Part shown: one piece after another, positions 12,833-34,395 of the stretch
Layout of the letters: each line of letters begins with the position of its first letter
Position numbering within the stretch: position 1 is the stretch's first letter
The notes under the pieces: model-generated
Database searches by the model: none
Told to the model about the DNA's origin: nothing
Seen by the model: the letters and a program-made list of their open reading frames with translations, nothing else
Translations under genes and position numbers: made by a program
NCBI GenBank assembly: GCA_043381765.1
Contig: JBHJMP010000026.1
Coordinates: forward strand, 1 to 34,395
Direction of reading: 5' to 3'
Origin: Collodictyon triciliatum
Taxonomy: Eukaryota
Length of the DNA stretch: 34,395 nucleotides

Positions 12833-13845
12833 CTTTTTCTGGCTGGAAGGTCGTGGCGTGGGTCGTTCGTCGGCGGCGTGTTTGTGAGTTGGGGTTAGAG
12901 TTGGAGTCGGAGTTAGTTTGGGTTTGAGTGCCAGTCGAAGCTGTTGGGGGAGGGTTGCGAGAGTGAAAGGCACTTTGGGGTTTTCCACAGCGCCACACGC
13001 TTTGCACAGGGGTGGTTTTGCTCTGTCTTGTGTTTTTGGTGCGGGATTCCTGCCCGCGGAGATGGGCGATAGGCTGATTCATGTTCGCGTGGCCTTTGGC
13101 GCAGCGGTCTGTCTGCTTGAAGCCACCATCGCAGGGCTGTGTGCTTCTGTTTCACTGAATGTTCGGCCGGGCTGGCTGGGACATATTCTGGACGTATATA
13201 TGTGCGGGCGCAAGACATAGGTTAACTTCTTTACGGTGCGGTGCTTCTTTTGTTTTAAATAGGGATTGCCGTGTTTTTCGAATTCATCATCGTGGTGTTG
13301 GTACTTATGAGATATTTCTGTGCAGAGAATAATCTAATTACAGATAGATATAGTGTATGTTCAAATGAATAGATCTTTTTGGAAAATTTCCCGAATTATG
13401 AATGGTTCTTTGAGAGGAATTAACCACAAATTATTGAATGGGAATAAAATAATTCCCATAATCAAACTAAACCACTCATGGGTTTGATGTCTACAAATTC
13501 ACGGTGGGTCTTATTGTGGAATGGTATCTTTCTCTGATTATATCTTTATACAGTATATTATTCGGATAAAATAAGAAAGTACATAAATGGTTATTTTACT
13601 GTGCACAAATGTGTTTGTCCTTATATGTAAGTATTCGCTATATTTTATCGTTAGACTAAAAAAAATTGATTACTTTTGTTTTCGAAAGGCGAGGGATTTG
13701 CAGCACATGACTTCGAGATATACGAGGCCCTTGAAAAACCTCGCACCGCATAAAACACAAGCTGGAGCGTTCCTACTTCACACAAGATGCTCATAGAGTC
13801 TCACTTTGTATTATAAGGGTAGAACATTTCCCTAATAGTTTATTA

Positions 13846-16800
13846 ATGGCCCAGTGTGATACGATGGACGCCTCGTCAAAGGTCACCAGCAAGGCCCTTG
13901 ACGATCTAGGTATGGATCATGACCTTGATGTTGGTATAATAGCTTGGGTCCAAGAAATATATACTGTTGATCTCGAATCATTCTTTATCTACGCTGAGTC
14001 TTAATGGGACAATTAGAATAAGAATATTTTGGGAGGTATTTTTCTTTTGGAAGTTCTAAGATAAAGGTATTATATGTATAGTTTATTTGTCGAAAGTAAA
14101 CCATATTCTGAGCCTGTGTGGTGTGGACGTCAGTGTTCGCGCTCGGAAGGAATGCACGCCATCCATGTTTATTGTCATGTTTGAGAAACTGTTGTATATT
14201 CATTTGAGAGGTGTGTATCTGCACAGCATCCCTATTTCCAATTATTTTGTGCCCATTCATCCATTTGATCACAATGTATATAAAGTGTTCTGAATCATTT
14301 GAATGCTAGATATTGAGCGAAATCCTTCCACCTTTGCTGACCACATTCGAAACATGGAAGTTCTCATCGAGGCGTTGTCAAAGGATATCCTCAGGGTCCT
14401 TTTTTTTTTTTCACTGTATTTTATGTAGCCATAAAGTGCGTAATTTGTTATTTTTTTATTTTTTTGCTCTTTGTTTTGATTCAAAGATAAGGAGCGTAAT
14501 TTCAGTGATATTCTAAACGTATAACAGACGGACTTGAGTCACATCACTCCAAGAGACGTTGCCGAGTTGAAGTGGGAATCCATTGCGGATATGATTGAAT
14601 TGTTTTATGAACTCTGTGAAATCATTCGATCCCAGCGAGCATTCGCCCAGCAACATGTTAGTATTGTTAATTTACCAAATCATGTTTTGGTGTGAAATGC
14701 TTTGTGAAGGCTTTAGTCATGATCTCGTCTTGCAAATCCACACTCAGCGCGTCTTACCATTTCCTCTGACAAGAAAACAAATAAAAATCGGTTGATATCG
14801 AACTAGGCTGCAGAACTCGTGAATGCTGGAATGGAAAATTATCCTCAAGTCATCGAAAGGCAGAAATCGAGGATAAAGGCATCGACAATAGCCAAGGATT
14901 ATCAGCAACTACATGCTGAAAATGAAAGTATCTTTTGTAGTCAAATATGTTTTGAAGAACATTCAGATTTTTACATCGTTAATCCATCAAAAGGTAGATA
15001 TTTGCGTAATATTGCTCACGAGATTCATGAATTATAGATATTCGTATACAAAATGAAATTGCCGATTTCCAAGCAGAAATAGACATGACGCGAAACAAGG
15101 TCGTTACTACTGCTCCCGAGATTTCTGAACATGATGCAAGTGAGCAGCTGACCAGTTCGGTATGTCTTGTCTTATATGAATAACTTCTCAAAGAACACGC
15201 CCGATGAAACATACATGCATGACAAATTTTGCATTCGATAGTCTATCTTTCCAAAGCCCACTTTAATTGATGGAAAATACCCGTCTGATTCTTTTAGTCT
15301 TCCCAAGCACCTACTCCTGGCCCCGTCTCCGCGTCGACATCTGTTTCTGCCCCAAGTCGCCGATCATCCTCTGCTCCCAAACAGACAAAAACTGTATCGA
15401 CCCAGGCACCAAAACCAGCTTTGAAGTCTCCCATTGCTTCCCTCCAACCATCGAGAACGTCTGTTAACAAACGTGCATGCAATCTACCCGATCAAAAGAC
15501 AAAGACTAGACCAGGGAGGTTGGCCTCTTCTACAAAAGCGAGAAAATCTCATGTTCCTCCGTCTCCCCCGAGTTTCGAGGAACTTGCTCAGCGCCTTGGG
15601 CAAAACGTAGTAGTAATTATTCGAGGATAATGATACATTCTTTAAATTCATGAAATATGAATCAGTAACTTTTAGTATATGTTGAAGTCTTAATGTATCG
15701 TATTACAAATAGATTGGCCCAAACGATGCTGATAATGAAATATTTGACCGTGAGAACCAAATTTTGAGTGGTTATTCTCGTTTTCTGGAATCCACTAGGC
15801 GAGTTACAGACCCATTTATTTATCCCGCTGAAGAAAGGGACAAAGTTAGCAACATGAGACTATCTGAAAAGGACGCTGCATTGAGACATGAAAAGCATAT
15901 ACAAGCCAAGGACTTTGCTGAAAAGAGAGGAAATCGTAACTACATGGAGGAAGGCCATACTTTCTGGAAAGCTGTGGAGACTCACTCGGATATGAGAACA
16001 GCCAAACTCGGAGAGATTTTTGAAGTTGTTCCACCAAAAGAATCTCAAGCAGGACGTTCATCCCGTACAATTGCAGACGATGGACATGTTCCTGAATTCT
16101 CTGTTGATAGCGGAAAGAAACCAAATTCATTCGTCTTCTCGGACGCTCATTTGGAAGATGGCAGACATCAGAAAGCTTTAGAGTCAAATCCTGTCATTCG
16201 TGATGTCCTCAAATCAAAAGACCCTAAGACCCCTACCTCCAGTCGCACCAATCATCCACATCAAAACCATCAGTCACAACCAATGTTGACACCAGAGCAG
16301 AGGCACGAAAGACTTTACCAAGAACTCATCGATATGAATTCAGGGTTCGTCCCCACAATACCGCCACCAGTGCCTTCCAAAAACATTGGGATAAAATCAC
16401 ATCGCACCATAACAAATGCCCCAAATAGAGCAGTTGCATGGGATGACCAACAAGATGAAGCGCGCCTGCGGACTTCCTTGAGGAATGAGCAAGAGTTCAG
16501 GAGAACCCGCCTTATGACGGAAGAATCTGACAACCCTGACTTTGCCTCCGAATCTACCACCCTAGCACCAGACGATTCTGACGTTCAAGCAACTCCCACG
16601 AGGAGGGTTGACCAGCGGATTTCCCTGACGGAGCCACGTCGGGCTTCAGACAAGAAACTGCCTACCGATTCCAGGAAATGTCACTCACCTGATTTGATAA
16701 GGCAAATAGGCGAATTAAGACAGCAGCTTGGCCTTCGTGAGCAAGAAATTCTTGCTGCTCAGTCGAATCCGAACCGACAGTGCGTCGCAGAAAGTGGAAA

Positions 16801-18492
16801 TCAACGAGGGCGCTCCTCGTCAGTCCCTGGAGGTCGTGGCTCTTACATGTCTCATACACACGCTTCTGTCAGCAAAAATGCAGTGAGTTGTTCTTACAGG
16901 ACCTTGAAGCTAATCTTTGTGTCGTCAATGCTAACATTATTATTTATTCAAGTATGACAATGGATAACTCAACTTGTCGCCTAGTTTGTCCACGAAGGTG
17001 CACATAGGCAAAGGCTTCTGTATCATACGATTGCTGATGATATAGCTCGTGCAAAGTGGAAAGTATGCTCCTCATTTGAGTGTTGATTTTCCTGTTCACA
17101 TACATAAGTTTTGTCAGTTTCTTTGTACATATTGTCTGGATCGGGTGTGCTTTACATTAGATTTATTGACAATGTGACCTCCTCCATAATTAAATAGGAC
17201 AAATAGACAAAAGTGTAATCATTTTTTTAAAAATTAGAAACATGTATCTCTCTAAATCTTTTAGAAACAACAACAAGCAAAGCTCAAGATGAAGTACCAG
17301 CTTTCCTCAGCCGCTCACGCGGAAAGGCAACTTAAGGTTTTTTTTTTATTGTATTACCATAGTGATATCTCCTTGGCCAATATATGTTCGTATATTTTTT
17401 CTTTTCTTTTTTTTTCTATGATGGAATTATAAATGACGGAAAAAAATACGGTAACCAAAATCCACAGGTTCATATGCAGCAGTATAAAGAAAAGGAAATG
17501 TTTGAAGCCAGGTCTACGGAATTGCGACGGAGATCTGAGCAGGAAAATTTATACAAGACCATGTTTGTATTTGATTCTCTTTTTTTCCGTTATTTTCTCC
17601 AAGAATTACGTTGATTTAATCTTACTCGATACTTTTCTACGTATTTCATTTTCGTAAATTGAGTTCTGTCTAGCTTAATTTATACACTGAAGTTAAAAGA
17701 AAACCCCCTTGTATGTACTAGGTTTGAACAGCTAAGGAAACTTCAGAAAGGACAGTTACTGGAAGAAAAGTCACGGATGAAAGAGGAACTGCAACAACTG
17801 GCCAAAGAACGCCGAGTAAGGCAGGAGGCAATTGACCATTAGTAAGCTTCATACCTTTTTCTTTTTCTTTTTCTTTTTCTTTTTCTTTTTCTTTTTCTTT
17901 TTCTTTTTCTTTTTCTTTTTCTTTTTCTTTTTCTTTTTCTTTTTCTTTTTCTTTTTTGTTTGTTTTAGTTTTTGGTTTCCTATGTTCATAGGCAAGATAA
18001 GTCCAAAATGTCTGGAGTGATTGTACGTTTGGTTTAGATGTTATTGTTCCATTCCATCATTTTCAGTCAGCAAGCTTGGCATAAACTGAGCTCATATGTT
18101 CATATGTATCGCAGCTATCAAACTCAGTACGAAATGATGAAAGAGCTCGCAGACGATACACGCCGAGAGAGAACGGTAGCTGAACAAGCCAATAAAAAGG
18201 TAAAGATTTACATTTCCCTAATAAGAAAATGTTAGTAATAACATTCAGACGAACCCCATAAATCTTTCTTCGGTATACTGGCTAAGTGTACCTTGATGTT
18301 GAAAAACATAATCGCCGGGAATGGGAAAAATAACCATTTTGTGCAAAGGCTATTAGGTCACTTGAACGGGAGATGAAGGAGAAGATGCAGTTTGAGCTCG
18401 AGCGTCTCAAAGAGTACCTCAAGTGTGAGGAGGAAATGCACTACTTCCGAGTGATGGACCCTTCTCGTCTGGTGGAGAGCGTTGTTCAGTGA
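13846..18492 (+). CDS. CEP95: Centrosomal protein CEP95-like (N-terminal DUF5745 region, disordered middle, C-terminal coiled coil)
   Basis: Spliced N-terminus VNHILSLCG..ECTPSMFIVMFEKL..DHIRNMEVLIEALSKDILR|TDLSHITPRDV..ESIADMIELF and C-terminus LEREMKEKMQFELERLKEYL..YFRVMDPSRL resemble CEP95 as I recall it. Includes the long exon within ORF 15764-16957. Start codon and some internal exons are uncertain. Confidence 0.78.
17856..17957. repeat. (TTTTTC)n hexamer repeat in a CEP95 intron
   Basis: About 16 units, seen directly. Confidence 0.9.
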
Positions 18493-18557
18493 CCGAAACA
18501 CAGACTTGAGAACATGCTAAGAGAATGGAAGATAGTATATCCATCACCTTTTCCAAC

Positions 18558-18616
18558 AGCATAAGAAAACATTTTTTTTTTCCTTTATTCGATTCAAAGT
18601 AGCATAAGAAAACATT
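18558..18616 (-). mobile_element. 27-nt poly(A)-tailed retroposon fragment with 16-bp target-site duplication
   Basis: Insert 18574-18600 (minus strand ACTTTGAATCGAATAAAGG-A8) flanked by perfect direct repeats AGCATAAGAAAACATT at 18558-18573 and 18601-18616. Confidence 0.8.
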
Positions 18617-21156: not shown

Positions 21157-25120
<3,964 letters not shown>

Positions 25121-26188
25121 GAATGGTCGCAGAAGTTGAACAAAAAGTGAGCACCCAAGAAAAATGAACAGAGAAAATAAAAAGAAAATAGGCTAGAGAG
25201 GAGCTGAAGAGAAGAGGAGGAGGAAGAGGAGGGAGAAGGTCACGATCAAGGCAGAGGATGCCATCCTCGAAGGAAGCATGAGAACATTTTGGAGTCATGT
25301 TTTTTTTGGAGAAGCAGCGTTTTCTTGCTGTCACTGGTGAGATTATGAGCCCATATAAGTGTGATTCCCATGCGTAGGTTTCGCAGCTGCGTCATCAACT
25401 ATGCTTTCGTAGTCATTGCGGAGTTGATGGTAGCCGGTTGTGTGTGCGACACACGATTCTCCCTGTCGCGGTCGCATTGTGCGCCTTACTTTCGCCTTGA
25501 GGCCGTTTGATGCGTCGTTTGCAGGAACGAGGAAAGCAGGGGCTGCCAGGGACTGGCGGGTGAACCCAGACGCTTTATATCCTGTGACCTCTGTCTCGAA
25601 AAGTGCGACTTATTATATACACATTTTCTTTTTTGCCCCGGGCAATTGTCACCGCGAGAATACGATTTATATACCTAGTGTCCCTTGTGTGGGCAAATAT
25701 TTAACTGCAATGTGTGTTGGGTGAAGTGGCAGAGTGCGAGGTGGATGGAATTTGAATTATTGAGGCGGCCGGCGGGGACAGAATGATAGCAGCCCGTGGC
25801 GGAGGGCAAGTAGTTTGGACACGAGCGGAACGAGTTGCGGTGACAGCTAATTTGTGTGTTTCTACTTTGGGAGAAAGGGCGTCTTTAGGAATCGCTTGTG
25901 GGTTTCAATGTCGACATGACGGTCTTTTATCCTAAAGTGGAAAATATTATGATATCGTTTACTTCGTGCATAGGATATAACTCTGGGCGTACCGGCAATA
26001 TCAATTTACACTTTTTGTATGATTATACGTTTCAATTTTGGGTGAATGTAATTATCCGAGATTGATCTATTCGTTTAAATTGCCATGTGACTAAATGTGG
26101 TGATCACACCGAGAGAAACAGACTTTAGAGGAACAATAAGAAAACACAGTATGAATAAGAAAAAGTCTCCTTTGCTCCTCGCTGCACA

Positions 26189-26214
26189 TTGAATCGAATA
26201 AAGGAAAAAAAAAA
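26189..26214 (+). repeat. copy of the TTGAATCGAATAAAGG-poly(A) dispersed element
   Basis: Core identical to the copies at 18574-18600 and 31023-31052. Flanking duplication is only degenerate (CTCCTCGCTG / CTCCTTCGCTG). Confidence 0.7.
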
Positions 26215-26641
26215 CTCCTTCGCTGAGAAACAATAAACACTGGGAGAGAAAAAGGACACATTCTCCAGAAAATAATATTATTGCACTGGCGTTCTTTCCT
26301 TTTCCCAACTCGCTGCATTCTGAAGCCGAAAAAAAAAAAAAAGTAAGCAAGGAAGGAAGCGGTCGAAAAGAGGGATCCCGAGAAGGACGAGACTGCCCAC
26401 CAGGAGACCGGCTCCACAACCCTGTCCCATGGAACGCCTACTGATCGTACGCATAACCGAGAAGGCCGATGCAGCCGACCCAGAGAGCGAAAAGGTCACT
26501 TGACCACATCCCTTGCAACACAGGTTATGCACCGAGATGCATCGACGATCAAGACGCCAGCTGCCACAGACCCGTGAGTACAACAACCTACTAATAATAA
26601 GACGGAGCGTGCTCTTTCAAACGAACAAGTTGTTTTCCTTT

Positions 26642-27712
26642 ATTGGATTCAAAGTACAGTGAGGTCGGAAAAACATTATTAATGAAGAATATATCTGGAT
26701 GCAAAGAGACCTATGGGATAAGTTCTTTGAAATGAAGAAGAGACTCTTTCATCAAAGAGACTGCAATTTCGAATACATTAAAAAAAAAAAAAAAAAAAAA
26801 TTATTGGGGGTTTTTTTTTTTTTTTTTTTTTGATAAGAAATCTATTTCAAATTCAAAATCCAATATAATTAGTCAAAAACCCCAAGAATATGTTAATATA
26901 TAGATGAACTTTCCGAAGAGCAGTTATCTTCATTAGCGACAAAAAAAAAATAGTTGGAGTGGACGCAGGCAAGTTTAATTTGGCTTCCATAGTGGATGAG
27001 ACAGGCAAGAAATTACGTTACACGGCACACCAAAGAAGACATGATAGCAAATCTGTTAAAAATCACAAAATACTCTTGCGCGAAAAAAAAGAAAATTACA
27101 ATGCTTCAGGTATATGCATGGCAACAGGTTTACAAAGTGCTGTTTCTTTTGGTCCCTGCTTTTTGAAGAGAATCAGCGGTTTGAGACATCAAGAGTATCT
27201 TTAATCGATTTAGAGACAAAACTGAGTGAACAACATTCATGCACGGTCGATTATGAAAATTTTCGAATACATATATATGAAATCAAGATACCAGATAGAA
27301 CTTTCCAGATTTTATAAACAAGTAACTTTTCGAAAGGTGAGATGGAGACAGCATGTTAATACAAAAAGAAGAGAACTGTTGTTTATGGACAGAATCGAAA
27401 AGACATTTGGCGAGGATGTTGTTCTGGTGTATGGGGACTGGAGCAGAAAATATCCGATGAAACTTTCTATGCCAACAATCGGAAGAGGGTTATAAAAAAA
27501 TACTATCCAAACGTTTTGAAACAGTTAATGTAGGTGAATTAAAAACCTCCGAGGTGTGCTGCAACTGGAAAAAAGAACTGGAATATATAAAACTGAATGG
27601 AAATTAAAAAAAAAATGTATATGGATGTCTCATATGTAAAGAATGCAATTGGTCAGAAAGCAAACAAAGTGTATTCTTGACAAGATACTTTAATAGCGCT
27701 AAAAAAATATAC
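26642..27712 (+). pseudogene. Degenerate Fanzor (eukaryotic TnpB-family RNA-guided nuclease) remnant
   Basis: Frameshifted segments: QRDLWDKFFEMKKRLF; YIDELSEEQL..IVGVDAGK (RuvC-I); KLRYTAHQRR; FYKQVTFRKVRWRQ; FGEDVVLVYGDWS..MPTIGRGL*; VNVGELKTSEVCCNW (RuvC-II plus Zn knuckle); CLICKEC; TRYFNSA (RuvC-III, D to Y). Multiple stops and frameshifts. Confidence 0.8.
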
Positions 27713-27790
27713 TCAAGAAAGATCATTTAATCCTTCGAAAAGTGCATACACCTTTCTCTAAAAAAACAGGCTGTTGGGTCTTTCCTGGCA

Positions 27791-27832
27791 GCCTTCACCA
27801 CTACACGATCTTTGTGAAAAAAGTGGTGAGGC
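27791..27832 (+). ncRNA. hairpin, candidate part of the Fanzor omegaRNA scaffold
   Basis: GCCTTCACCACT...AGTGGTGAGGC stem about 80 nt after the RuvC-III motif, where Fanzor/TnpB omegaRNAs are encoded. Function is inferred. Confidence 0.4.
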
Positions 27833-28423
27833 CTTGAATACTAGCGCACCATGTTTACCAATCGAAAGATTTGTATACCCCTCTAGCCAGCGATACATGG
27901 TTTCCACCCGGAAGCCCCGACATTTCCTTTAATCGATTGGCTGATTGGCTTCCACAGGATGCCTCTGCTGGTGTGACACTGTAATGAAAATGTATTCCTC
28001 GTTCAACAGACATCACTTTGTTGGGTGTTTTTTTATTTGTCTTTGGGATTTATTATAATTCGGTTCTCTGGTATTGGGATGCTTCGGGGTGTTGGGGAGT
28101 TCAGTAGACTGGTATCGCAGGAGAAGGAAAACAACGGGAGTGGAGATGAGGCGGGGAGAGAAACGATGAAGGTATAGGGGAAGTGGAATTGACAGAGGTG
28201 CGGAATAAGACATCAAATGAAGCCTTCTTAATAAGACTTCTTCGTAGAAAAATGCATAAGTGCAAGATAAATCAATATATGAAAAAAAAAACCAGAGCAC
28301 AACAGAAGCAAAACCCACAAAACACCCACAAACACAAACACCATGGTGCTCTGCCCTTCAATACATTTTCTTCTCTCTCTCTCTCTATCTATCTCTCAAC
28401 TGGGCGTGTCTGCTATATACGAC

Positions 28424-30329
28424 TCATTTGAGCCCGTTCGTCCGAGCAGCAAACTCCTTGATATGTTCTCGAGTATGTTTCCCATATGTCTCTCCGTAGT
28501 CATGATTAAACCCAGGGACGAAACCTATATCGATTGTCAACATCATATTTAGCAACAGCATGGTTAAATCTTGGACAGAGACAGAGAGACACGCCTGGAA
28601 ACAGACCCCCAGAGATACAACCCAAAGAAAAACAAAGCGGAATATGGAATAAGGTGAAGAAAGGCCAAGGCAACCAGACCTGTGTACCCAGGGAGATGGC
28701 CTTTCTGACGATGCGCACCCTGGTCGAGGACTTGGGTGGGGTCGCGGTGTGCCGGGGTGGGGGCGGGGCCGGCGCGGAGGCTGTCGCGGGCGGTGTCACC
28801 AAAGGTCTTTGCGATGATGTCCTGTGCGTGGGGCAGATGGCCGGTGTATCCGGGCAGGTGGGCGGGGGCGTCGTGTGCGGGGGGCGAAGGGTCAGGCTGA
28901 CGGTGGACGGGAGATGCGGACGAGGCCGGGGCAGGGCTGCGAGCAGGGCGCTGGGCAAGCAGCAAGTCCTCTGCAGCGCGGGTGCTGCGGCCGTATGTCT
29001 GGGCAACGGCATACTTTGTGCCGGGGCGGTATCCAGTGTAGCCGAGGGTGCGGGCGGTGGGTGTGGCGGGCTGCCAGCGCTGGTCTGCCTCCCTTTCTGC
29101 CTCCGCATCCGCACCCGCATCAGCATCGCGCTGTAAGTAGTGGAGCGGCGAGACTGGGGCGTCGGGCGACTGCGCATCCTCGGCGGCGACCTCGCGGGTG
29201 ATTTGGCCGTAAGTCTTTGCAAGCTTGTGCTCGGCGCGGTGGATGTAGCCGGTGTATCCGGGCAGGTGGTGGGCGTCGCCCAGGAGGCGGACGGCCGGGT
29301 CCAGCGGGCGGTGGTCCGTGAAGGGAATCGGGGCGCTGTCCTCGCGGGCGCGCTGCTCCATCTCCTCGCGTTCGGCTTGCACGTGCGCGCGGGTCTGCTG
29401 CACCTCCGCACGCCCGTCACGCAGACGCTCCCGCGTCAGGCGCCCGTACGTCTTGCCGTGGTCGTCCTTGGCGTGGCGGACAAAGCCCGTGTATCCGGGG
29501 ACCTGCTCCTGCTCCCAGTGCCGTGTCCCGTGGTGGTTGTGGTCGGCCTCAGCGCCGCTCTCCGGCGGGATTCCGTGGCTGGGCCATCGCCCCTCGGGTG
29601 ACCGCGCCACGCCCCGCGTCAGGTGTCCGTATGTGCGGCCGTAGTGGTGCTGCGCCCCGGCGATGAATGCGCTGTATCCGGGCAGCTTGTGTTCGCTCGG
29701 CTGCTCGAACTCGGGCTTGCTGTCTGACGCGTTGGGCTCGAACAGGCCTCTTCCGGGCACCTGGTTTGTTTGTTTTTTGTTTTGTTTTTTGTTTTTTGTT
29801 TTTTGTTTTTTGTTTTTTGTTTTTGCTCTTTTGATTTCATGCCATGCGTCCCGCCTACCGCAAGCACGGCCGTCGCGGCATCCACGGGCGGCGGGTTGTG
29901 CAGGCTGCCCTGGTGGTTGCGCGCATCGCTCAGCGCCTGCTCCTTGACGTGGACCGCCACGCGCGAGCCGTGCCCATAGGTCGACCCTGCCGGCATCCGC
30001 AGCGGCGACACGTACCCCGCGTATCCCGGCATGTGCTGCTCCTCCAGGCTCGGCGCTCGGTCCAGCGTGGCCGCCACTCCTGCGGGGGCCCCGCGGTAGT
30101 ACTCGGGCGAGGCCGGCCCGCTCCCCAGCTTCCCCGACGCGGACGCCGACCGCCGCCCAAACGGCGCCGCGTGCACAGTCTCTGCAGGGAACGGCCCGTC
30201 CCCACGAGCCACTTTGATGCGCAGCGCGTCCCGCGTGGTCTGTCCAAACGTCCGCCCAAAGTCTTCTCGTGTGTTGGACACAAACCCTCCGTACCCCGGG
30301 AGGTGGTGGCGGGAGAGGTCCAGTGCCAT
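28424..30329 (-). CDS. FAM166/CIMIP2-like ciliary microtubule inner protein with 8 PGY repeats
   Basis: Exons 30329-29859, 29760-28680 and 28524-28424 join in frame. Eight units of (P/L)GY(T/G/A/S)(G/A)..x(8-10)..(G/A)xT(Y/F)GxxT, starting MALDLSRHHLPGYGGF and ending AARTNGLK*. Confidence 0.8.
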
Positions 30330-30392
30330 GGGCTGCTTTGCTGTCTTGCTGCTTGTGTGGGCAAGGGTCAGGTTTACGGCTGGTGCTTTGTT

Positions 30393-30549
30393 TTGGTTGG
30401 TTTTTGGTTTTTGGTTTTTGGTTTTTGGTTTTTGGTTTTTGGTTTTTGGTTTTTGGTTTTTGGTTTTTGGTTTTTGGTTTTTGGTTTTTGGTTTTTGGTT
30501 TTTGGTTTTTGGTTTGTGGTTTTTGGTTTTTGGTTTTTGGTTTTTGGTT
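30393..30549. repeat. (TTTTTGG)n 7-mer tandem repeat
   Basis: About 21 units upstream of the FAM166-like ATG. Source of the spurious KTKNQKP/FWFLVFG ORFs. Confidence 0.95.
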
Positions 30550-30785
30550 GTTTTTTTTTTTTTTGAGTCAAGGCTCAAGAGCTTATACCCCACCAGGCTG
30601 GAAGGGTGGGTGTGGTAAGGGCTCGAGTGAATAAAAGAGAATGAGGGGGGATCGCCTCAGGTTTTGTAGCTTTGTTTCCGAAATATATACTCGGGGTGGT
30701 CATGCCTTCATTTGGGCTTTTCTTTTTCTTTTTCTTTTTCTTTTTCTTTCGCTGTATTTCTGGAGGGGTATGGTGGGAGATCGTC

Positions 30786-30828
30786 CGGATTTGATCGGAT
30801 TTGATCAGATTTGATCAGGTTTGGTCGG
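30786..30828. repeat. 10-bp tandem repeat (CGGATTTGAT x~4)
   Basis: CGGATTTGAT CGGATTTGAT CAGATTTGAT CAGGTTTGGT CGG. Confidence 0.8.
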
Positions 30829-31011
30829 CTGCGACTTGTCTTCACCTTTCTGGCTTTCCGTTGAGTTTCTATATCTGGTTTTTAAACGGACACATGTCCA
30901 GGGAATACACCAATGCTCCATGTGTGGAAGATAGGCATTTATGAATCAGTAATCCACGCTATATAGTATATTTTTGAATATTATATGTTAGATATCATAT
31001 ATACAAGAATT

Positions 31012-31063
31012 AATTCATATATGAAGGTCTTTGAATCGAATAAAGGAAAAAAAATTCATATAT
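31012..31063 (+). mobile_element. 30-nt poly(A)-tailed retroposon fragment with 11-bp target-site duplication
   Basis: GAAGGTCTTTGAATCGAATAAAGG-A(6) at 31023-31052 flanked by AATTCATATAT at 31012-31022 and 31053-31063. Confidence 0.8.
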
Positions 31064-31106
31064 TGTCGTATTATCACCTCTATATTATATAGGTGATAAT
31101 ACGACA
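31064..31106. repeat. Long palindrome (16-bp perfect inverted repeat)
   Basis: TGTCGTATTATCACCT (31064-31079) / AGGTGATAATACGACA (31091-31106). The spacer is itself nearly palindromic. Confidence 0.92.
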
Positions 31107-31193
31107 GCCAGCCCCAACCCTGCTATTTTACGCCTTTATATACACATATCCATATCTATATATGGTTAATTCCAGATTTGGCAACATCTTTGT

Positions 31194-31233
31194 GGAATGT
31201 TCTGGTATATTCCGGAGTCTTCTAGAATCTTTT
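31194..31233. promoter_or_regulatory. Array of alternating nGAAn/nTTCn pentamers (heat-shock-element-like) upstream of the first viral ORF
   Basis: gGAAt gTTCt gGTAt aTTCc gGAGt cTTCt aGAAt cTTTt: 8 in-phase pentamers, 5 perfect. Function is inferred. Confidence 0.4.
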
Positions 31234-31246
31234 CTCTATAAAAGGT

Positions 31247-31540
31247 ATGAGCGAATGGAAGAAGATTGTTAAGATCAATGGCGTCAAGTATTGCGTCAAA
31301 GTCTCCAAATTGAAAAACAAAAAGTACACTGCGTACTTAGTAGGCGAAGACGACACACTCTATCAACCTATCCACTTTGGCGACAAAAGATATAATCACT
31401 TCAAAGACAAGCTTGGCTTTTATAAAAACCTAGATACCAACGATAAAGAACAAAGACAACGTTACAGACAAAGACACGCAAAGGATAACATAGACGATCC
31501 TAACACACCAGGTTATTGGGCCTACCATTATTTATGGTAG
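31247..31540 (+). CDS. DUF5754-like small basic viral protein
   Basis: S..KNKKY..IHFGDKRYNHF..D..QRQRYRQRH..PGYWAYHYLW pattern, which I recognise from giant-virus/PLV hypothetical proteins. Family name recalled, not searched. Confidence 0.75.
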   Translation: MSEWKKIVKINGVKYCVKVSKLKNKKYTAYLVGEDDTLYQPIHFGDKRYNHFKDKLGFYKNLDTNDKEQRQRYRQRHAKDNIDDPNTPGYWAYHYLW

Positions 31541-31546
31541 CAGAGT

Positions 31547-31975
31547 TTATTCAGCGTGGAAGTCTCGCAGCAGCATCACAAGACGAATCATCAACATCTT
31601 GGTCATCTTATATATCTCGCGCTTCTGGCTTTGGGTTGCGTAAACTGGCACATTCAAAGCTGCCCAGACAGCAGCACGAGTAGCGTCCACACAACCATCT
31701 ACTATTGTTTGGGTAACTTCATCGCCTGGGCCAGTGCCATTGAAATGCACGTGAACCCTGATGACATCTTCTAATGTTGTCCTCCACATTGCTCGGTTTC
31801 TCCCATTCGACAATGTCAGTTGCGAATAGTCTTTCCATTCAATTGTGTAGCCATCAGCCTCGCCCTCCTTGAACTCAATCTTGTAATCATTCGTGCCCGT
31901 ATTGAATACAGTATCAAGAAATGTATAATCATCCCCATCAATAAAACGAATGTAAAAGTTTCGTAATTCGGCCAT
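31547..31975 (-). CDS. Hypothetical viral protein (142 aa from first ATG)
   Basis: Intronless ORF converging on the DUF5754-like ORF with a 6-nt gap. First ATG at 31975; the track uses a TTG at 31999. No recognised motif. Confidence 0.65.
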   Translation of the reverse strand: MAELRNFYIRFIDGDDYTFLDTVFNTGTNDYKIEFKEGEADGYTIEWKDYSQLTLSNGRNRAMWRTTLEDVIRVHVHFNGTGPGDEVTQTIVDGCVDATRAAVWAALNVPVYATQSQKREIYKMTKMLMIRLVMLLRDFHAE

Positions 31976-32065
31976 TGTAATTTCTTGACTGTCTAACAAT
32001 TTAATAGTTAGTAATTGGCTAGATATGTTTTGATTTGTAATATAACCTTATACAACAAATCAATT

Positions 32066-32221
32066 TTATACCGACGGATGTAATAAATCCTTTTCGCTTT
32101 TAAATTCAACACTACCCCCGCAACAACTTGACCGCTTCAAATGATCAACTGTATATTTCCACACGCGCTCTATCACAAGCACACAGGTCATCAACAAGGA
32201 TATAATAGTAACTGGGTCCAT
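32066..32221 (-). CDS. 51-aa putative viral membrane protein (TM helix followed by KRSSCCGG)
   Basis: MDPVTIISLLMTCVLVIERVWKYTVDHLKRSSCCGGSVEFKSEKDLLHPSV*. Starts 15 nt after the MCP stop, same strand, with the shared upstream motif. Below the ORF-track cutoff. Confidence 0.7.
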   Translation of the reverse strand: MDPVTIISLLMTCVLVIERVWKYTVDHLKRSSCCGGSVEFKSEKDLLHPSV

Positions 32222-32236
32222 ACATATATTAGAAAA

Positions 32237-33796
32237 TTATTCCACACGGAATGTTTGCTGGTTGCTCTGGATTTCAAGCACGGCATCGTACAGACTAGCC
32301 ACCACAACATTGTATGACTTTGCTCCGCTGTTGCCCTCAAATTCTAATCTTAGCGACATTAGCCCTGACCCGCTACTCTGGATATCTGTACCGACTATTT
32401 CCCCTTCGGCTACATCGAGTACTTTACGCAGATTAAACCCTAACATAAACTCACAAGGATTCTGTACACCCTCGCGCAAAAATCTAGCTACAACTCCTGT
32501 ATCACCATCCTCTAATCCCGTTGTGTCTGCTTGTCTTAGTTGACTGTACGTAGTATCACTAAATTCACATCCTACACGACCATATGGTGACAAAATTGGA
32601 ACACCACCAACATTTTGTTCAACTGGTTGAGCAACAGTAAATCCTTCAAGCAAATCAAACGTGCGATCAACAGGCGGTTTAGCAAACTCGTATCCATTAA
32701 AGCCATAAGGGCCAGTATATTCACTACGTACAAATGTTAGACCCATTGCCTTCTGTACCTCTAGGAAAACTTGACTTGCTCCGTTCTTACAATCCATTGG
32801 CTGGAGAGGATAATAGAAAGAACCTAACTGAAGTTGTGCTGTTTTCAGATTCGTAGGAAAATGTTTTCTGTCTCGACCTGGAATCATTATCTTTCCTTGT
32901 TCATTAGTGTCAAAAAATGCCACATATACAGCATTCAAAGATTTCACAGTGTCATTAATATTATACACAATAGAGGGCGTGTTGGCTGCCAAAGTATACA
33001 ATGAAGTCCTCCACGTTTTATAGGGAATCTGAAGCGGTACACCTCGGGATATAGATGATTGAAGTTGTGCGTGATACTCTGGCGCCATCCTTACCAAATC
33101 ATAAGTAATATAACAACTAGTTAATGTATATGTAGCTGTCGCATCCGCGCTTCCTAGTCCAGCATTAGCAGCCCCCCCACGATTGTATGCCTGTAGACAT
33201 TGGTTAGCTGGTGCTAGTTCTATCTCAATCTGAAAAGCTGCAACTGAATCAATTAAACTTGTACTGATCAAACCCGAATACTGACTAATTCCTGACAGTC
33301 GCAATGGAACCGAATAATTTCTAACAACCAAGTTTGAATTAAAGTTAGTTGCTGTTTCACGATGATTTCTAATACGGTCATAAGCATTCCCTATTCCCAT
33401 CAATGCCGCTCCGACACATTTGTTGTAGTCATCAGCCACATAATTCATAAACATACTATCTAGGTAATTATACCGTTGTATATCCTCTAAAAGGAAACTA
33501 GTGCCTTTTCTAATTCGGAGTGTTTGGATAATTGATTCAATCGAGTTATTAAAAAAGTAATCGTGGGTATTGGCTGCTCCCGTTCCTGGAACTATTGTGA
33601 CGTCAAAGTGAATCATCAACGTGTCCATATCTATTTCCATTCCAGTTTCGGAAGGTATATTCCACAGAATTCTGTCTACTTTAGTTGGTCCAAACTCTCC
33701 TCCGTTAAAAGGGGTAATTCTAGTTGTGTGACGGGCTAAAACTTTGTCATTGTAGTTCCGAATCTTCATATACTTTGCTTCGCTAGGGTACTCCAT
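32237..33796 (-). CDS. Major capsid protein, Polinton-like-virus type (putative double jelly-roll)
   Basis: 519-aa intact intronless beta-rich ORF. N-terminal ITPFNGGEFGP..RILWNIP..IDMDTLMIHFDV, SIIQTLRI..LLEDIQRYN, YSVPL, IEIELAP, YPLQPMDC and C-terminal LYDAVLEI resemble PLV MCPs. Lacks the NCLDV MGGGLMQLVAYG start. Confidence 0.8.
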   Translation of the reverse strand: MEYPSEAKYMKIRNYNDKVLARHTTRITPFNGGEFGPTKVDRILWNIPSETGMEIDMDTLMIHFDVTIVPGTGAANTHDYFFNNSIESIIQTLRIRKGTSFLLEDIQRYNYLDSMFMNYVADDYNKCVGAALMGIGNAYDRIRNHRETATNFNSNLVVRNYSVPLRLSGISQYSGLISTSLIDSVAAFQIEIELAPANQCLQAYNRGGAANAGLGSADATATYTLTSCYITYDLVRMAPEYHAQLQSSISRGVPLQIPYKTWRTSLYTLAANTPSIVYNINDTVKSLNAVYVAFFDTNEQGKIMIPGRDRKHFPTNLKTAQLQLGSFYYPLQPMDCKNGASQVFLEVQKAMGLTFVRSEYTGPYGFNGYEFAKPPVDRTFDLLEGFTVAQPVEQNVGGVPILSPYGRVGCEFSDTTYSQLRQADTTGLEDGDTGVVARFLREGVQNPCEFMLGFNLRKVLDVAEGEIVGTDIQSSGSGLMSLRLEFEGNSGAKSYNVVVASLYDAVLEIQSNQQTFRVE

Positions 33797-33836
33797 AACA
33801 TACCTGAGAAATTAATTTCAAATCAAACGCAATAAA

Positions 33837-34010
33837 ATAATGGGGAGGGTTGCATAACCTAAGTCACATCCCCCTAAAAACTTTTATATTGGTACCCTCC
33901 CTCTTTTCCCCTAATAATGGGGGAGGGTATCCTATGAACTTTATAAATATATACTTGTACATATATACTTGTGCATATAGATGTACATAGATACTAACCC
34001 TCCCCATTAT
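33837..34010. repeat. Nested inverted repeats in the spacer upstream of the MCP gene
   Basis: ATAATGGGGAGGGTT (33837-33851) / AACCCTCCCCATTAT (33996-34010), plus inner stem TACCCTCCC / GGGAGGGTA (~33893-33929). Confidence 0.85.
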
Positions 34011-34366
34011 CGAAAGCGGAGTTCCCTGCCGTGAGTTGTTAATGCATAAGCCTGCCCCAAATCGTGGATGCCAGAACCCAGTGATTTAGTGTTTATCTTT
34101 TTCAAGTCCATTTCCCCTAAAGTACTCAAACCCCGTCCCAGATAATTAGCTGCCTTGATACTAGAGACCAAGGGATTGGTTATTGTTTGGATGGCTGGCT
34201 TTACTCCACTTGTTGTAAGTAAATTATCAACCAACCCCATACTCGCATCATCTAGTCTGTTGTAAGCATCGTTCAGTCCCTCCAATCTTCGAATAGCTCT
34301 GTTAGTTGATGTAGTAAGGAATCGACCAACTCCTCGTGCTCCTCGTTGTGCGTAGTTTACAATCAT
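34007..34366 (-). CDS. Hypothetical viral protein upstream of MCP (119 aa, basic/amphipathic)
   Basis: Intronless, co-oriented with MCP, carries the shared upstream motif. No recognised family. Confidence 0.7.
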   Translation of the reverse strand: MIVNYAQRGARGVGRFLTTSTNRAIRRLEGLNDAYNRLDDASMGLVDNLLTTSGVKPAIQTITNPLVSSIKAANYLGRGLSTLGEMDLKKINTKSLGSGIHDLGQAYALTTHGRELRFR

Positions 34367-34395
34367 ACATTTCCCAAGATAAAAATATAAGCTTG

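Follow-up and report, generated by a model that had tools for sequence, protein, structure and literature searches.

The window analysed here is a stretch of 34,395 nucleotides (nt) from the protist Collodictyon triciliatum (contig JBHJMP010000026.1, assembly GCA_043381765.1), and all coordinates are those of this window. Among the TnpB-type RNA-guided RuvC endonucleases, Fanzor1 is the branch found in eukaryotes and giant viruses, and a sequence of this type was found on the plus strand at 26699-27817, possibly beginning at ~26505. It is very probably a dead, 5'-truncated Fanzor1 gene copy, one of a repeated, transcribed family in this protist, and an ordinary transposon fossil. A first-pass annotation, made from the sequence alone, had placed a fossil Fanzor at 26642-27712. 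Similarity was indeed present there, though the remnant ran ~100 nt further 3', to a terminal TGA at 27815-27817, and weak similarity reached 5' to ~26505. The reference for comparison was P0162, a protein of 648 amino acids (aa); P0162, P0023, P0003, P0009, and P0045 are unnamed metagenome and NCBI proteins. The main structural comparison was with Fanzor1 of Spizellomyces punctatus (SpuFz1, 8gkh). The features in and around the remnant were the following, ORF standing for open reading frame.

26505-26698, plus strand: possible, far more decayed 5' part of the remnant (P0162 residues ~224-282), with three consecutive stops at 26592-26600
26630-26664, minus strand: retroposon tail in the remnant, 35 nt, with a poly(A) signal; beyond it the similarity to Fanzor picks up without a change of frame
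26699-27817, plus strand: secure Fanzor1 pseudogene remnant (P0162 residues 283-642), from tblastn, frameshift-aware alignment, and shuffles
26780-26831, no strand assigned: homopolymer palindrome of A~20-21 and T~20-22 with a spacer of ~10-11 nt, replacing the 'ETDG...SLLF' codons of relatives
26953-26970, plus strand, frame 1: VGVDAG, RuvC-I; Asp at 26962-26964 kept, equivalent to SpuFz1 D383 in the 8gkh alignment
27106-27200, plus strand: coding insertion, in frame as 31-37 aa at the same place in P0162, P0003, P0049, and P0079
27430-27444, plus strand, frame 1: YGDWS, aligned to SpuFz1 'MGDWS'; Gly at 27433-27435 in the canonical RuvC-II position
27533-27550, plus strand, frame 2: GELKTS; alternative catalytic Glu at 27536-27538 kept, equivalent to SpuFz1 E541 via P0004 and P0162
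27557-27646, plus strand: zinc-finger remnant, with CCNW at 27557-27568, CLICKEC at 27626-27646, and a TAA stop between them at 27605-27607
27680-27700, plus strand: TRYFNSA, RuvC-III, with Tyr (TAC) at 27686-27688 where relatives have Asp
27768-27829, plus strand: a pair of adjoining stem-loops that spans the 3' end of the ORF, candidate remnant of an omega RNA scaffold

The identity of the remnant was established by similarity. A read-through of 26908-27495, with stops written as X, was compared by phmmer with 1.84 billion representative proteins, and matched 663 of them at E ≤ 1e-3, of which 90 reached E ≤ 1e-10; the lowest E-value was 1.7e-30. Full-length relatives were ~560-690 aa long. 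A word-indexed search of longer proteins matched P0162 at E 3.4e-51, and window fragments were 58-62% identical to it. The check that the first-pass annotation had proposed, a tblastn or frameshift-aware comparison, gave highly significant similarity. When 150 relatives were compared by tblastn with the whole 34.4-kb window, the matches were confined to 26600-27710; P0162 matched 26944-27516 (E 5.5e-56), 27488-27805 (E 1e-27), and 26699-26947 (E 4.4e-6). With E-values down to 1e-56, chance is excluded.

Comparison with 177,635 distinct sequences of solved structures, at E ≤ 10, gave only two matches to the remnant, both of them Fanzor1: SpuFz1 (E 0.0023) and the Parasitella parasitica protein PpFz1 (9cf0, E 0.034). 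The relative P0004, searched at E ≤ 0.01, matched SpuFz1 over residues 14-607 (E 9.2e-37), as well as PpFz1 (7e-34) and GtFz1 (7e-16). TnpB and Fanzor2 chains were absent from the matches of both queries at these thresholds; a solved Fanzor2 structure has been reported (PMC11832414), and for Fanzor2 the null is limited in that the presence of such a structure in the set searched was not established. From the solved-structure matches of the remnant and of P0004 the family can therefore be identified as Fanzor1, which narrows the earlier call of a fossil Fanzor, and by homology the stretch is assigned to the Fanzor1 branch of TnpB-type RNA-guided RuvC endonucleases. Other labels were less specific. 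All 14 longer relatives found by the word-indexed search carried a precomputed PF26935 (DUF8286) label; a local Pfam scan of P0004, P0005, and P0162 did not return PF26935, the model probably missing there. PF07282 (Cas12f1-like_TNB) was above its cut-off in two of the nine relatives tested and below it in five more. A protein search restricted to 'near' lengths gave two matches at 38-39% identity and none closer, and cluster names for ten relatives were uninformative.

All of the motifs that the first-pass annotation had named (VGVDAG, YGDWS, GELKTS, CCNW..CKEC, and TRYFNSA) were present and colinear on the plus strand, in the order expected of a TnpB/Fanzor RuvC domain. The metal-binding residues of SpuFz1 are D383, N385, E541, and D606 (Saito et al. 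2023, PMC10432273). The RuvC-I Asp of the remnant aligned to the 'VIDPNK' of 8gkh, as in Fanzor1. Fanzors are described as having a 'rearranged' site, in which an inert Gly or Pro occupies the position of the canonical RuvC-II Glu and an alternative Glu lies elsewhere (Jiang et al. 2023, PMC10530073). The Gly of YGDWS and the Glu of GELKTS are both present and, as aligned, the pair fits this arrangement. The third catalytic position was lost. P0162 D604 (SpuFz1 D606) was invariant in 17 of 17 relatives in alignment A1, a set mostly of the giant-virus group that was used for invariant residues and a consensus, and was Tyr in the window, so the mutated RuvC-III reported earlier is real. The zinc finger kept three of its four Cys. 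The second pair, C-K-E-C, was intact at 27635-27646, while the second Cys of the first pair was Trp (27566-27568); in alignment A1, C565 and C590 were invariant and C562 and C587 nearly so.

The decay of the copy was mapped with a custom frameshift-tolerant alignment of protein to DNA. P0162 residues 224-642 were placed on 26505-27805, with 220 of the 406 aligned codons identical. The stops and frameshifts noticed in the first pass were confirmed and counted in this alignment. There were seven frameshifts, with one base short at 26709, 26895, 26951, and 27151 and one extra at 26813, 27258, and 27493, and five stops, single ones at 27605 and 27728 and a run of three at 26592-26600. One relative, P0009, was itself frameshifted where the window is, near 27493. 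The A/T block at 26780-26831, also noted earlier as one of the breaks, was present, and it was colinear with the P0162 coding sequence, replacing codons and adding no length; it looks like an expansion of homopolymers in A-rich and T-rich codons.

How far the remnant extends in the 5' direction was judged by shuffling. The segment 26699-26950 scored 83 against 26.9 ± 4.2 for shuffled sequences, with none of 150 shuffles reaching it. Further 5', 26480-26698 scored 62 against P0162 (28 ± 4.9; 0 of 150), and against P0023 the scores were 36 for 26400-26600 (26.0 ± 4.7; 4 of 150) and 29 for 26601-26698 (20.1 ± 3.8; 4 of 150). The segment 26505-26698 is graded only as a possible 5' part of the remnant, by these alignments, because residues invariant in the family were mostly not retained in it. 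The first ~220 residues of P0162 had no similarity to 25000-26176 (score 41 against 41.4 ± 4.1, reached by 15 of 25 shuffles). In total, ~360-420 of ~648 codons, those of the C-terminal WED/RuvC/zinc-finger part, were retained, and ~220-280 N-terminal codons (the REC/WED part) were missing from the window, so that the window copy does not form the single open frame of ~600-650 aa, with N-terminal REC/WED, of a full-length Fanzor1. Because the N-terminal part, the frame, the RuvC-III Asp, and a zinc Cys have been lost, and a retroposon tail has been inserted, this copy cannot make a nuclease.

The stretch at 27106-27200 had appeared in the first pass as an insert of ~100 nt (near 27097-27200), and it proved not to be a foreign one. 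Four relatives translate the corresponding stretch in frame. In the window its first half resembled P0162 when read in frame 1 and its second half when read in frame 3, and 1 nt was lost near 27151. The 31-37 aa are missing from SpuFz1 and from the consensus of the 17 sequences of alignment A1. Judged by these alignments, 27106-27200 is a lineage-specific coding insertion and not foreign. A GT..AG pair at 27110-27195 (86 nt, phase-compatible) was considered as an intron and ruled out, both by translation of the stretch in the four relatives and by the P0162-like halves on either side of the 1-nt loss.

Evidence that the remnant is one of several copies came from RNA. Two sequencing runs, X1 and X2, shared 27% of the words of 22000-31000, and 261 and 230 of their contigs, respectively, were placed on 22000-30300. 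Because these contigs splice the introns of neighbouring genes (12 introns of a minus-strand GH9-like gene and one of a CIMIP2-like gene), the runs were taken to be RNA-derived. Only 26 and 27 contigs were ≥ 99% alike, the rest being 90-99% alike. Their cover extended over roughly 26470-27860, where as many as 14 variants were found at one site, and 25324-25877 was entirely without cover. Among the indels listed, frame-restoring ones were found at four of the seven frameshift sites: one base gained after 26709/26710 and one after 27154, two lost at 26939, and one lost at 27495. No variant was listed for the other three. A 1-nt gap at 27295 in one contig was rejected as a repair of the frame, since the alignment puts the window frameshift at 27258. 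Six further runs (X3-X8) shared 0-9% of words, and X3 and X4, which had no cover over 25047-29201, were uninformative for the Fanzor stretch. Indirectly, these data indicate that the remnant is one copy of a repeated family in the protist genome, that this family is transcribed, and that some of its members are less damaged. The earlier suggestion that intact relatives may exist elsewhere in the genome gains only indirect support from the variant contigs, some of which restore the frame, and this evidence stops short of a full-length intact copy.

On this interpretation, a mobile element carrying a Fanzor gene would have left a repeated family in the protist genome, of which the remnant would be one member, and other members would be transcribed, some of them in frame where the window copy is broken. 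We only infer a full-length active copy in the genome, the identity of the carrier transposon, and the location of the guide RNA. Several results weigh against the interpretation. No other copies of the family were retrieved, and a metagenome scan with a window fragment gave only two distant loci, which were 44% identical. For X1 and X2 the type of library was guessed, from the spliced neighbour only, and their contigs cannot be assigned to individual copies. The number of frameshifts varies with the alignment penalties chosen, and at least three of the seven (26813, 26951, and 27493) lie in homopolymer runs and may be assembly errors. Pfam did not recognise the remnant: one of six fragments scored 14.4 bits against OrfB_IS605 (E 0.045), below the cut-off of 30.5, and read-throughs with stops as X gave no match.

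Decayed Fanzor copies beside intact ones are already known, because S. punctatus is reported to have 42 Fz loci, of which 19 are full-length and the others partial (PMC10432273). The remnant is of the same family as SpuFz1 by sequence, and has the same order of motifs, with the RuvC-I Asp, the Gly, the alternative Glu, the zinc finger, and RuvC-III. The relationship is only distant, however; the window lineage has Gly at SpuFz1 N385, and the insertion that follows the first RuvC segment is absent from SpuFz1. P0162, P0023, P0003, P0009, and P0045 formed the immediate clade of the remnant; they share the insertion, and P0045 also shares the 'VGVDAG' variant. Unlike the remnant, P0162 is full length and has all of the catalytic and zinc residues. 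The nearest large group was made up of giant-virus 'transposase' proteins (PF26935; IMG/VR, GVMAG), which are 37-47% identical to P0162 over nearly the full length and fall in the same length class, 526-640 aa. They differ in having intact ORFs where the window copy is wrecked, in a consensus without the insertion, and in forming clades separate from that of the window.

These viral relatives were numerous. An alignment-based scan of IMG/VR recovered them, whereas P0162 alone as query recovered none; 316 of the 571 pattern-matched stretches coded for Fanzor relatives. Of these, 80 loci were kept, 30 of them on GVMAG-named contigs, and all 80 had an uninterrupted ORF, of 526-640 aa. The nearest Atlas clusters of P0162 were 92-100% viral, most commonly Nucleocytoviricota, and carried PF26935. 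A quick maximum-likelihood tree was inferred for 99 rows: 40 viral ORFs (every second of the 80), 57 metagenome proteins of unknown origin, among them P0162 and P0003, one JGI metagenome locus, and the window. The window grouped with P0162 (support 91 by the Shimodaira-Hasegawa-like approximate likelihood ratio test, SH-aLRT) and then with P0003 (99), and this clade fell within a group of 63 rows (93) that contained all 40 viral rows in two clades. The fork between the window clade and the viral clades was without resolution, the window clade lying beside the viral ones and not inside them.

Kinship of the remnant with giant-virus Fanzors is thereby shown at the level of sequence. That the family entered the protist lineage from a giant virus, or passed in the reverse direction, and then multiplied as a transposon would be compatible with the reading as a dead copy of a repeated protist family, and has somewhat less than an even chance. 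In its favor are the abundance of intact viral ORFs, the viral Atlas clusters, and the support for the larger group. However, the window clade is not nested in a viral clade, the rows were chosen by similarity, so that sampling is biased, 57 of them are metagenome proteins of unknown origin, and the direction of transfer is not readable from a tree that is midpoint-rooted and does not include labelled cellular Fanzor1. A bolder form of the idea, which is slightly more doubtful still, is that copies of a Fanzor1 lineage known almost only from giant viruses are still active and transcribed in the protist, that this lineage is marked by a 31-37-aa RuvC-lobe insertion peculiar to it, and that the locus is one lost member of a family exchanged between giant viruses and their host. 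If true, the family would exemplify directly the passage of an RNA-guided nuclease between virus and host, and would supply a new nuclease.

Fanzors are eukaryotic RNA-guided nucleases of relevance to genome editing, and the manner of their spread among protists and giant viruses is unsettled. The locus alone adds little, partial copies beside intact ones having been described before. Its value is that it flags an under-sampled protist with a repeated Fanzor1 family of giant-virus type in its transcriptome, and this protist is a place to seek intact copies, element ends, a target-adjacent motif (TAM), and the guide RNA.

A more local viral source, delivery by an endogenous virus 3 kb away, had been raised in the first-pass annotation; on this view the Fanzor would belong to that element, which begins ~3 kb downstream. 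A block of low GC (~39%) at ~30950-34395 contained a 524-aa ORF (32237-33811, minus strand) whose language-model features resembled viral capsid clusters (score 0.98, Preplasmiviricota/Nucleocytoviricota), in which the Capsid_N, DJR-like, and Sputnik_MCP families were found in 10-29% of members. Its recognition value was 1900, below the mark of 2300, and it had no PDB, Pfam, or IMG/VR match. The block from ~30950 is probably an integrated small virus of the double-jelly-roll-capsid type, polinton-like or virophage-like, as far as these model-derived features go, and is a lead only. Arrival of the Fanzor with it would agree with the capsid-like ORF and with the frequency of Fanzor relatives in viruses. 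However, a spliced host gene (CIMIP2-like, 28564-30567, minus strand) lies between the remnant and the block, the remnant belongs to a dispersed multi-copy family, the window clade lies outside the viral clades, and the contigs that bear the relatives are those of giant viruses, tens to hundreds of kb long, and not small capsid-only elements, so that this source is very improbable.

Even less probable is that the copy is alive, encoding a working Fanzor whose breaks are introns or homopolymer sequencing errors. It would draw on the three frameshifts in A or T runs, on the frame-restoring variants in the RNA contigs, on the GT..AG pair at 27110-27195, which preserves the frame, and on the introns known in Fanzor genes (PMC10530073). 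However, the stretch between GT and AG is coding, as seen in the four relatives and the two P0162-like halves, and the joint 27110->27195 was not among the 15 of 22 RNA-contig joints listed. Homopolymer errors cannot account for the TAA stops at 27605 and 27728, the change of Asp to Tyr and Cys to Trp, the tail at 26630-26664, the A/T block, or the missing N-terminal codons, and a living copy is close to refuted.

A remnant of a prokaryotic TnpB (IS200/IS605), contamination, or a chance set of motifs can be set aside as refuted, with next to no probability: the weak OrfB_IS605 match of one fragment is in its favor, and against it are the spliced, eukaryotic flanking genes, the length of the relatives, the match of Fanzor1 structures over the whole length, the absence of TnpB chains from the structure matches, and the E-values. 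Prokaryotic TnpB (IS200/IS605, ISDra2 type) and Fanzor2 do have the RuvC and zinc-finger core in common with the remnant, and the relatives of the remnant are ~150 aa longer than the mean TnpB as given in PMC10530073.

For the dead Fanzor1 copy, a candidate for the remains of a guide RNA was found as well. Fanzor and TnpB elements encode their guide RNA at the 3' end (PMC10432273, PMC10530073). In the window, 27730-27900 had a predicted fold of -43.5 kcal/mol (z -2.2), and 4 of 200 shuffles were equally good. A search of 25500-28600 against Rfam gave no family match, only two sub-threshold matches to microRNA models. The hairpins at 27768-27829 may be a remnant of the guide (omega) RNA scaffold, and are a candidate on the basis of the predicted fold.

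The tail within the remnant was one of four retroposon tails in the window, the other three having target-site duplications.

18572-18600, minus strand: retroposon tail with a perfect 14-nt target-site duplication
26177-26214, plus strand: retroposon tail with a 10-nt target-site duplication, one mismatch
31023-31054, plus strand: retroposon tail with a perfect 9-nt target-site duplication

The window contained four occurrences of a 21-nt core with AATAAA, where 0.00 were expected, and the tails were 29-38 nt long and ended in poly(A). They look like severely 5'-truncated copies of one retroposon family without long terminal repeats (non-LTR), and the copy at 26630-26664 is a true foreign insert in the Fanzor remnant. 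The retroposon family is expressed, as seen in RNA contigs with loose ends at 26177, which are there because these are retroposon transcripts. Exact matches to the retroposon motif in IMG/VR numbered zero.

Two repeats were considered as ends of the carrier transposon and rejected. The inverted repeat 26177-26211 / 26630-26664 (35 nt, 86%), the strongest near the remnant, could have been the ends of a transposon or of a 'ghost' miniature inverted-repeat transposable element (MITE), and its shared core is the retroposon tail. A 16-nt match, 26192-26207 / 27923-27938, was considered as the right end; it is probably the same core or chance, and the cover by RNA contigs drops before it. Neither inverted repeats of a carrier, of the 30-nt type, nor a TAM could be defined in the window.

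Just upstream of the remnant, ~26215-26500 was GC-rich (~55-60%) and contained a 33-nt direct repeat (26378-26410 / 26457-26489). Fanzor similarity was not detectable in this stretch, and multi-contig RNA cover began at ~26470. Inside the low-GC block further downstream were a sub-threshold DUF5754 match in an ORF at 31226-31540 and, just within the edge of the block and beside the retroposon tail, a near-perfect palindrome with a stem of ~17 nt (31066-31104). A second low-GC stretch (33-42%) at ~13000-18600, with a 414-aa ORF (15713-16957, plus strand) that had no Pfam match and with a retroposon tail at its right edge, may be another foreign or viral insert.

The neighbours of the remnant were ordinary eukaryotic genes, encoding NHL-repeat, PP2C, catalase, and CIMIP2B-like (28564-30567, minus strand) proteins, and the host is a free-living protist of a poorly sampled lineage. 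Among 5.8 billion proteins, the catalase was most similar to an unnamed EukProt transcript (73%), and the best named matches were from Naegleria lovaniensis (64%) and Willaertia magna (60%). The GH9-like cellulase gene (22013-25109, minus strand) had its 12 introns confirmed by the RNA contigs; eleven were GT..AG, and the joint 23589->23755 had non-canonical TA..GA ends on the plus strand. The CIMIP2B-like ciliary gene was very GC-rich (~66%), with one intron confirmed (28522->28678), and upstream of it was a long tandem repeat of 'KTKNQKP' units at 30397-30515.

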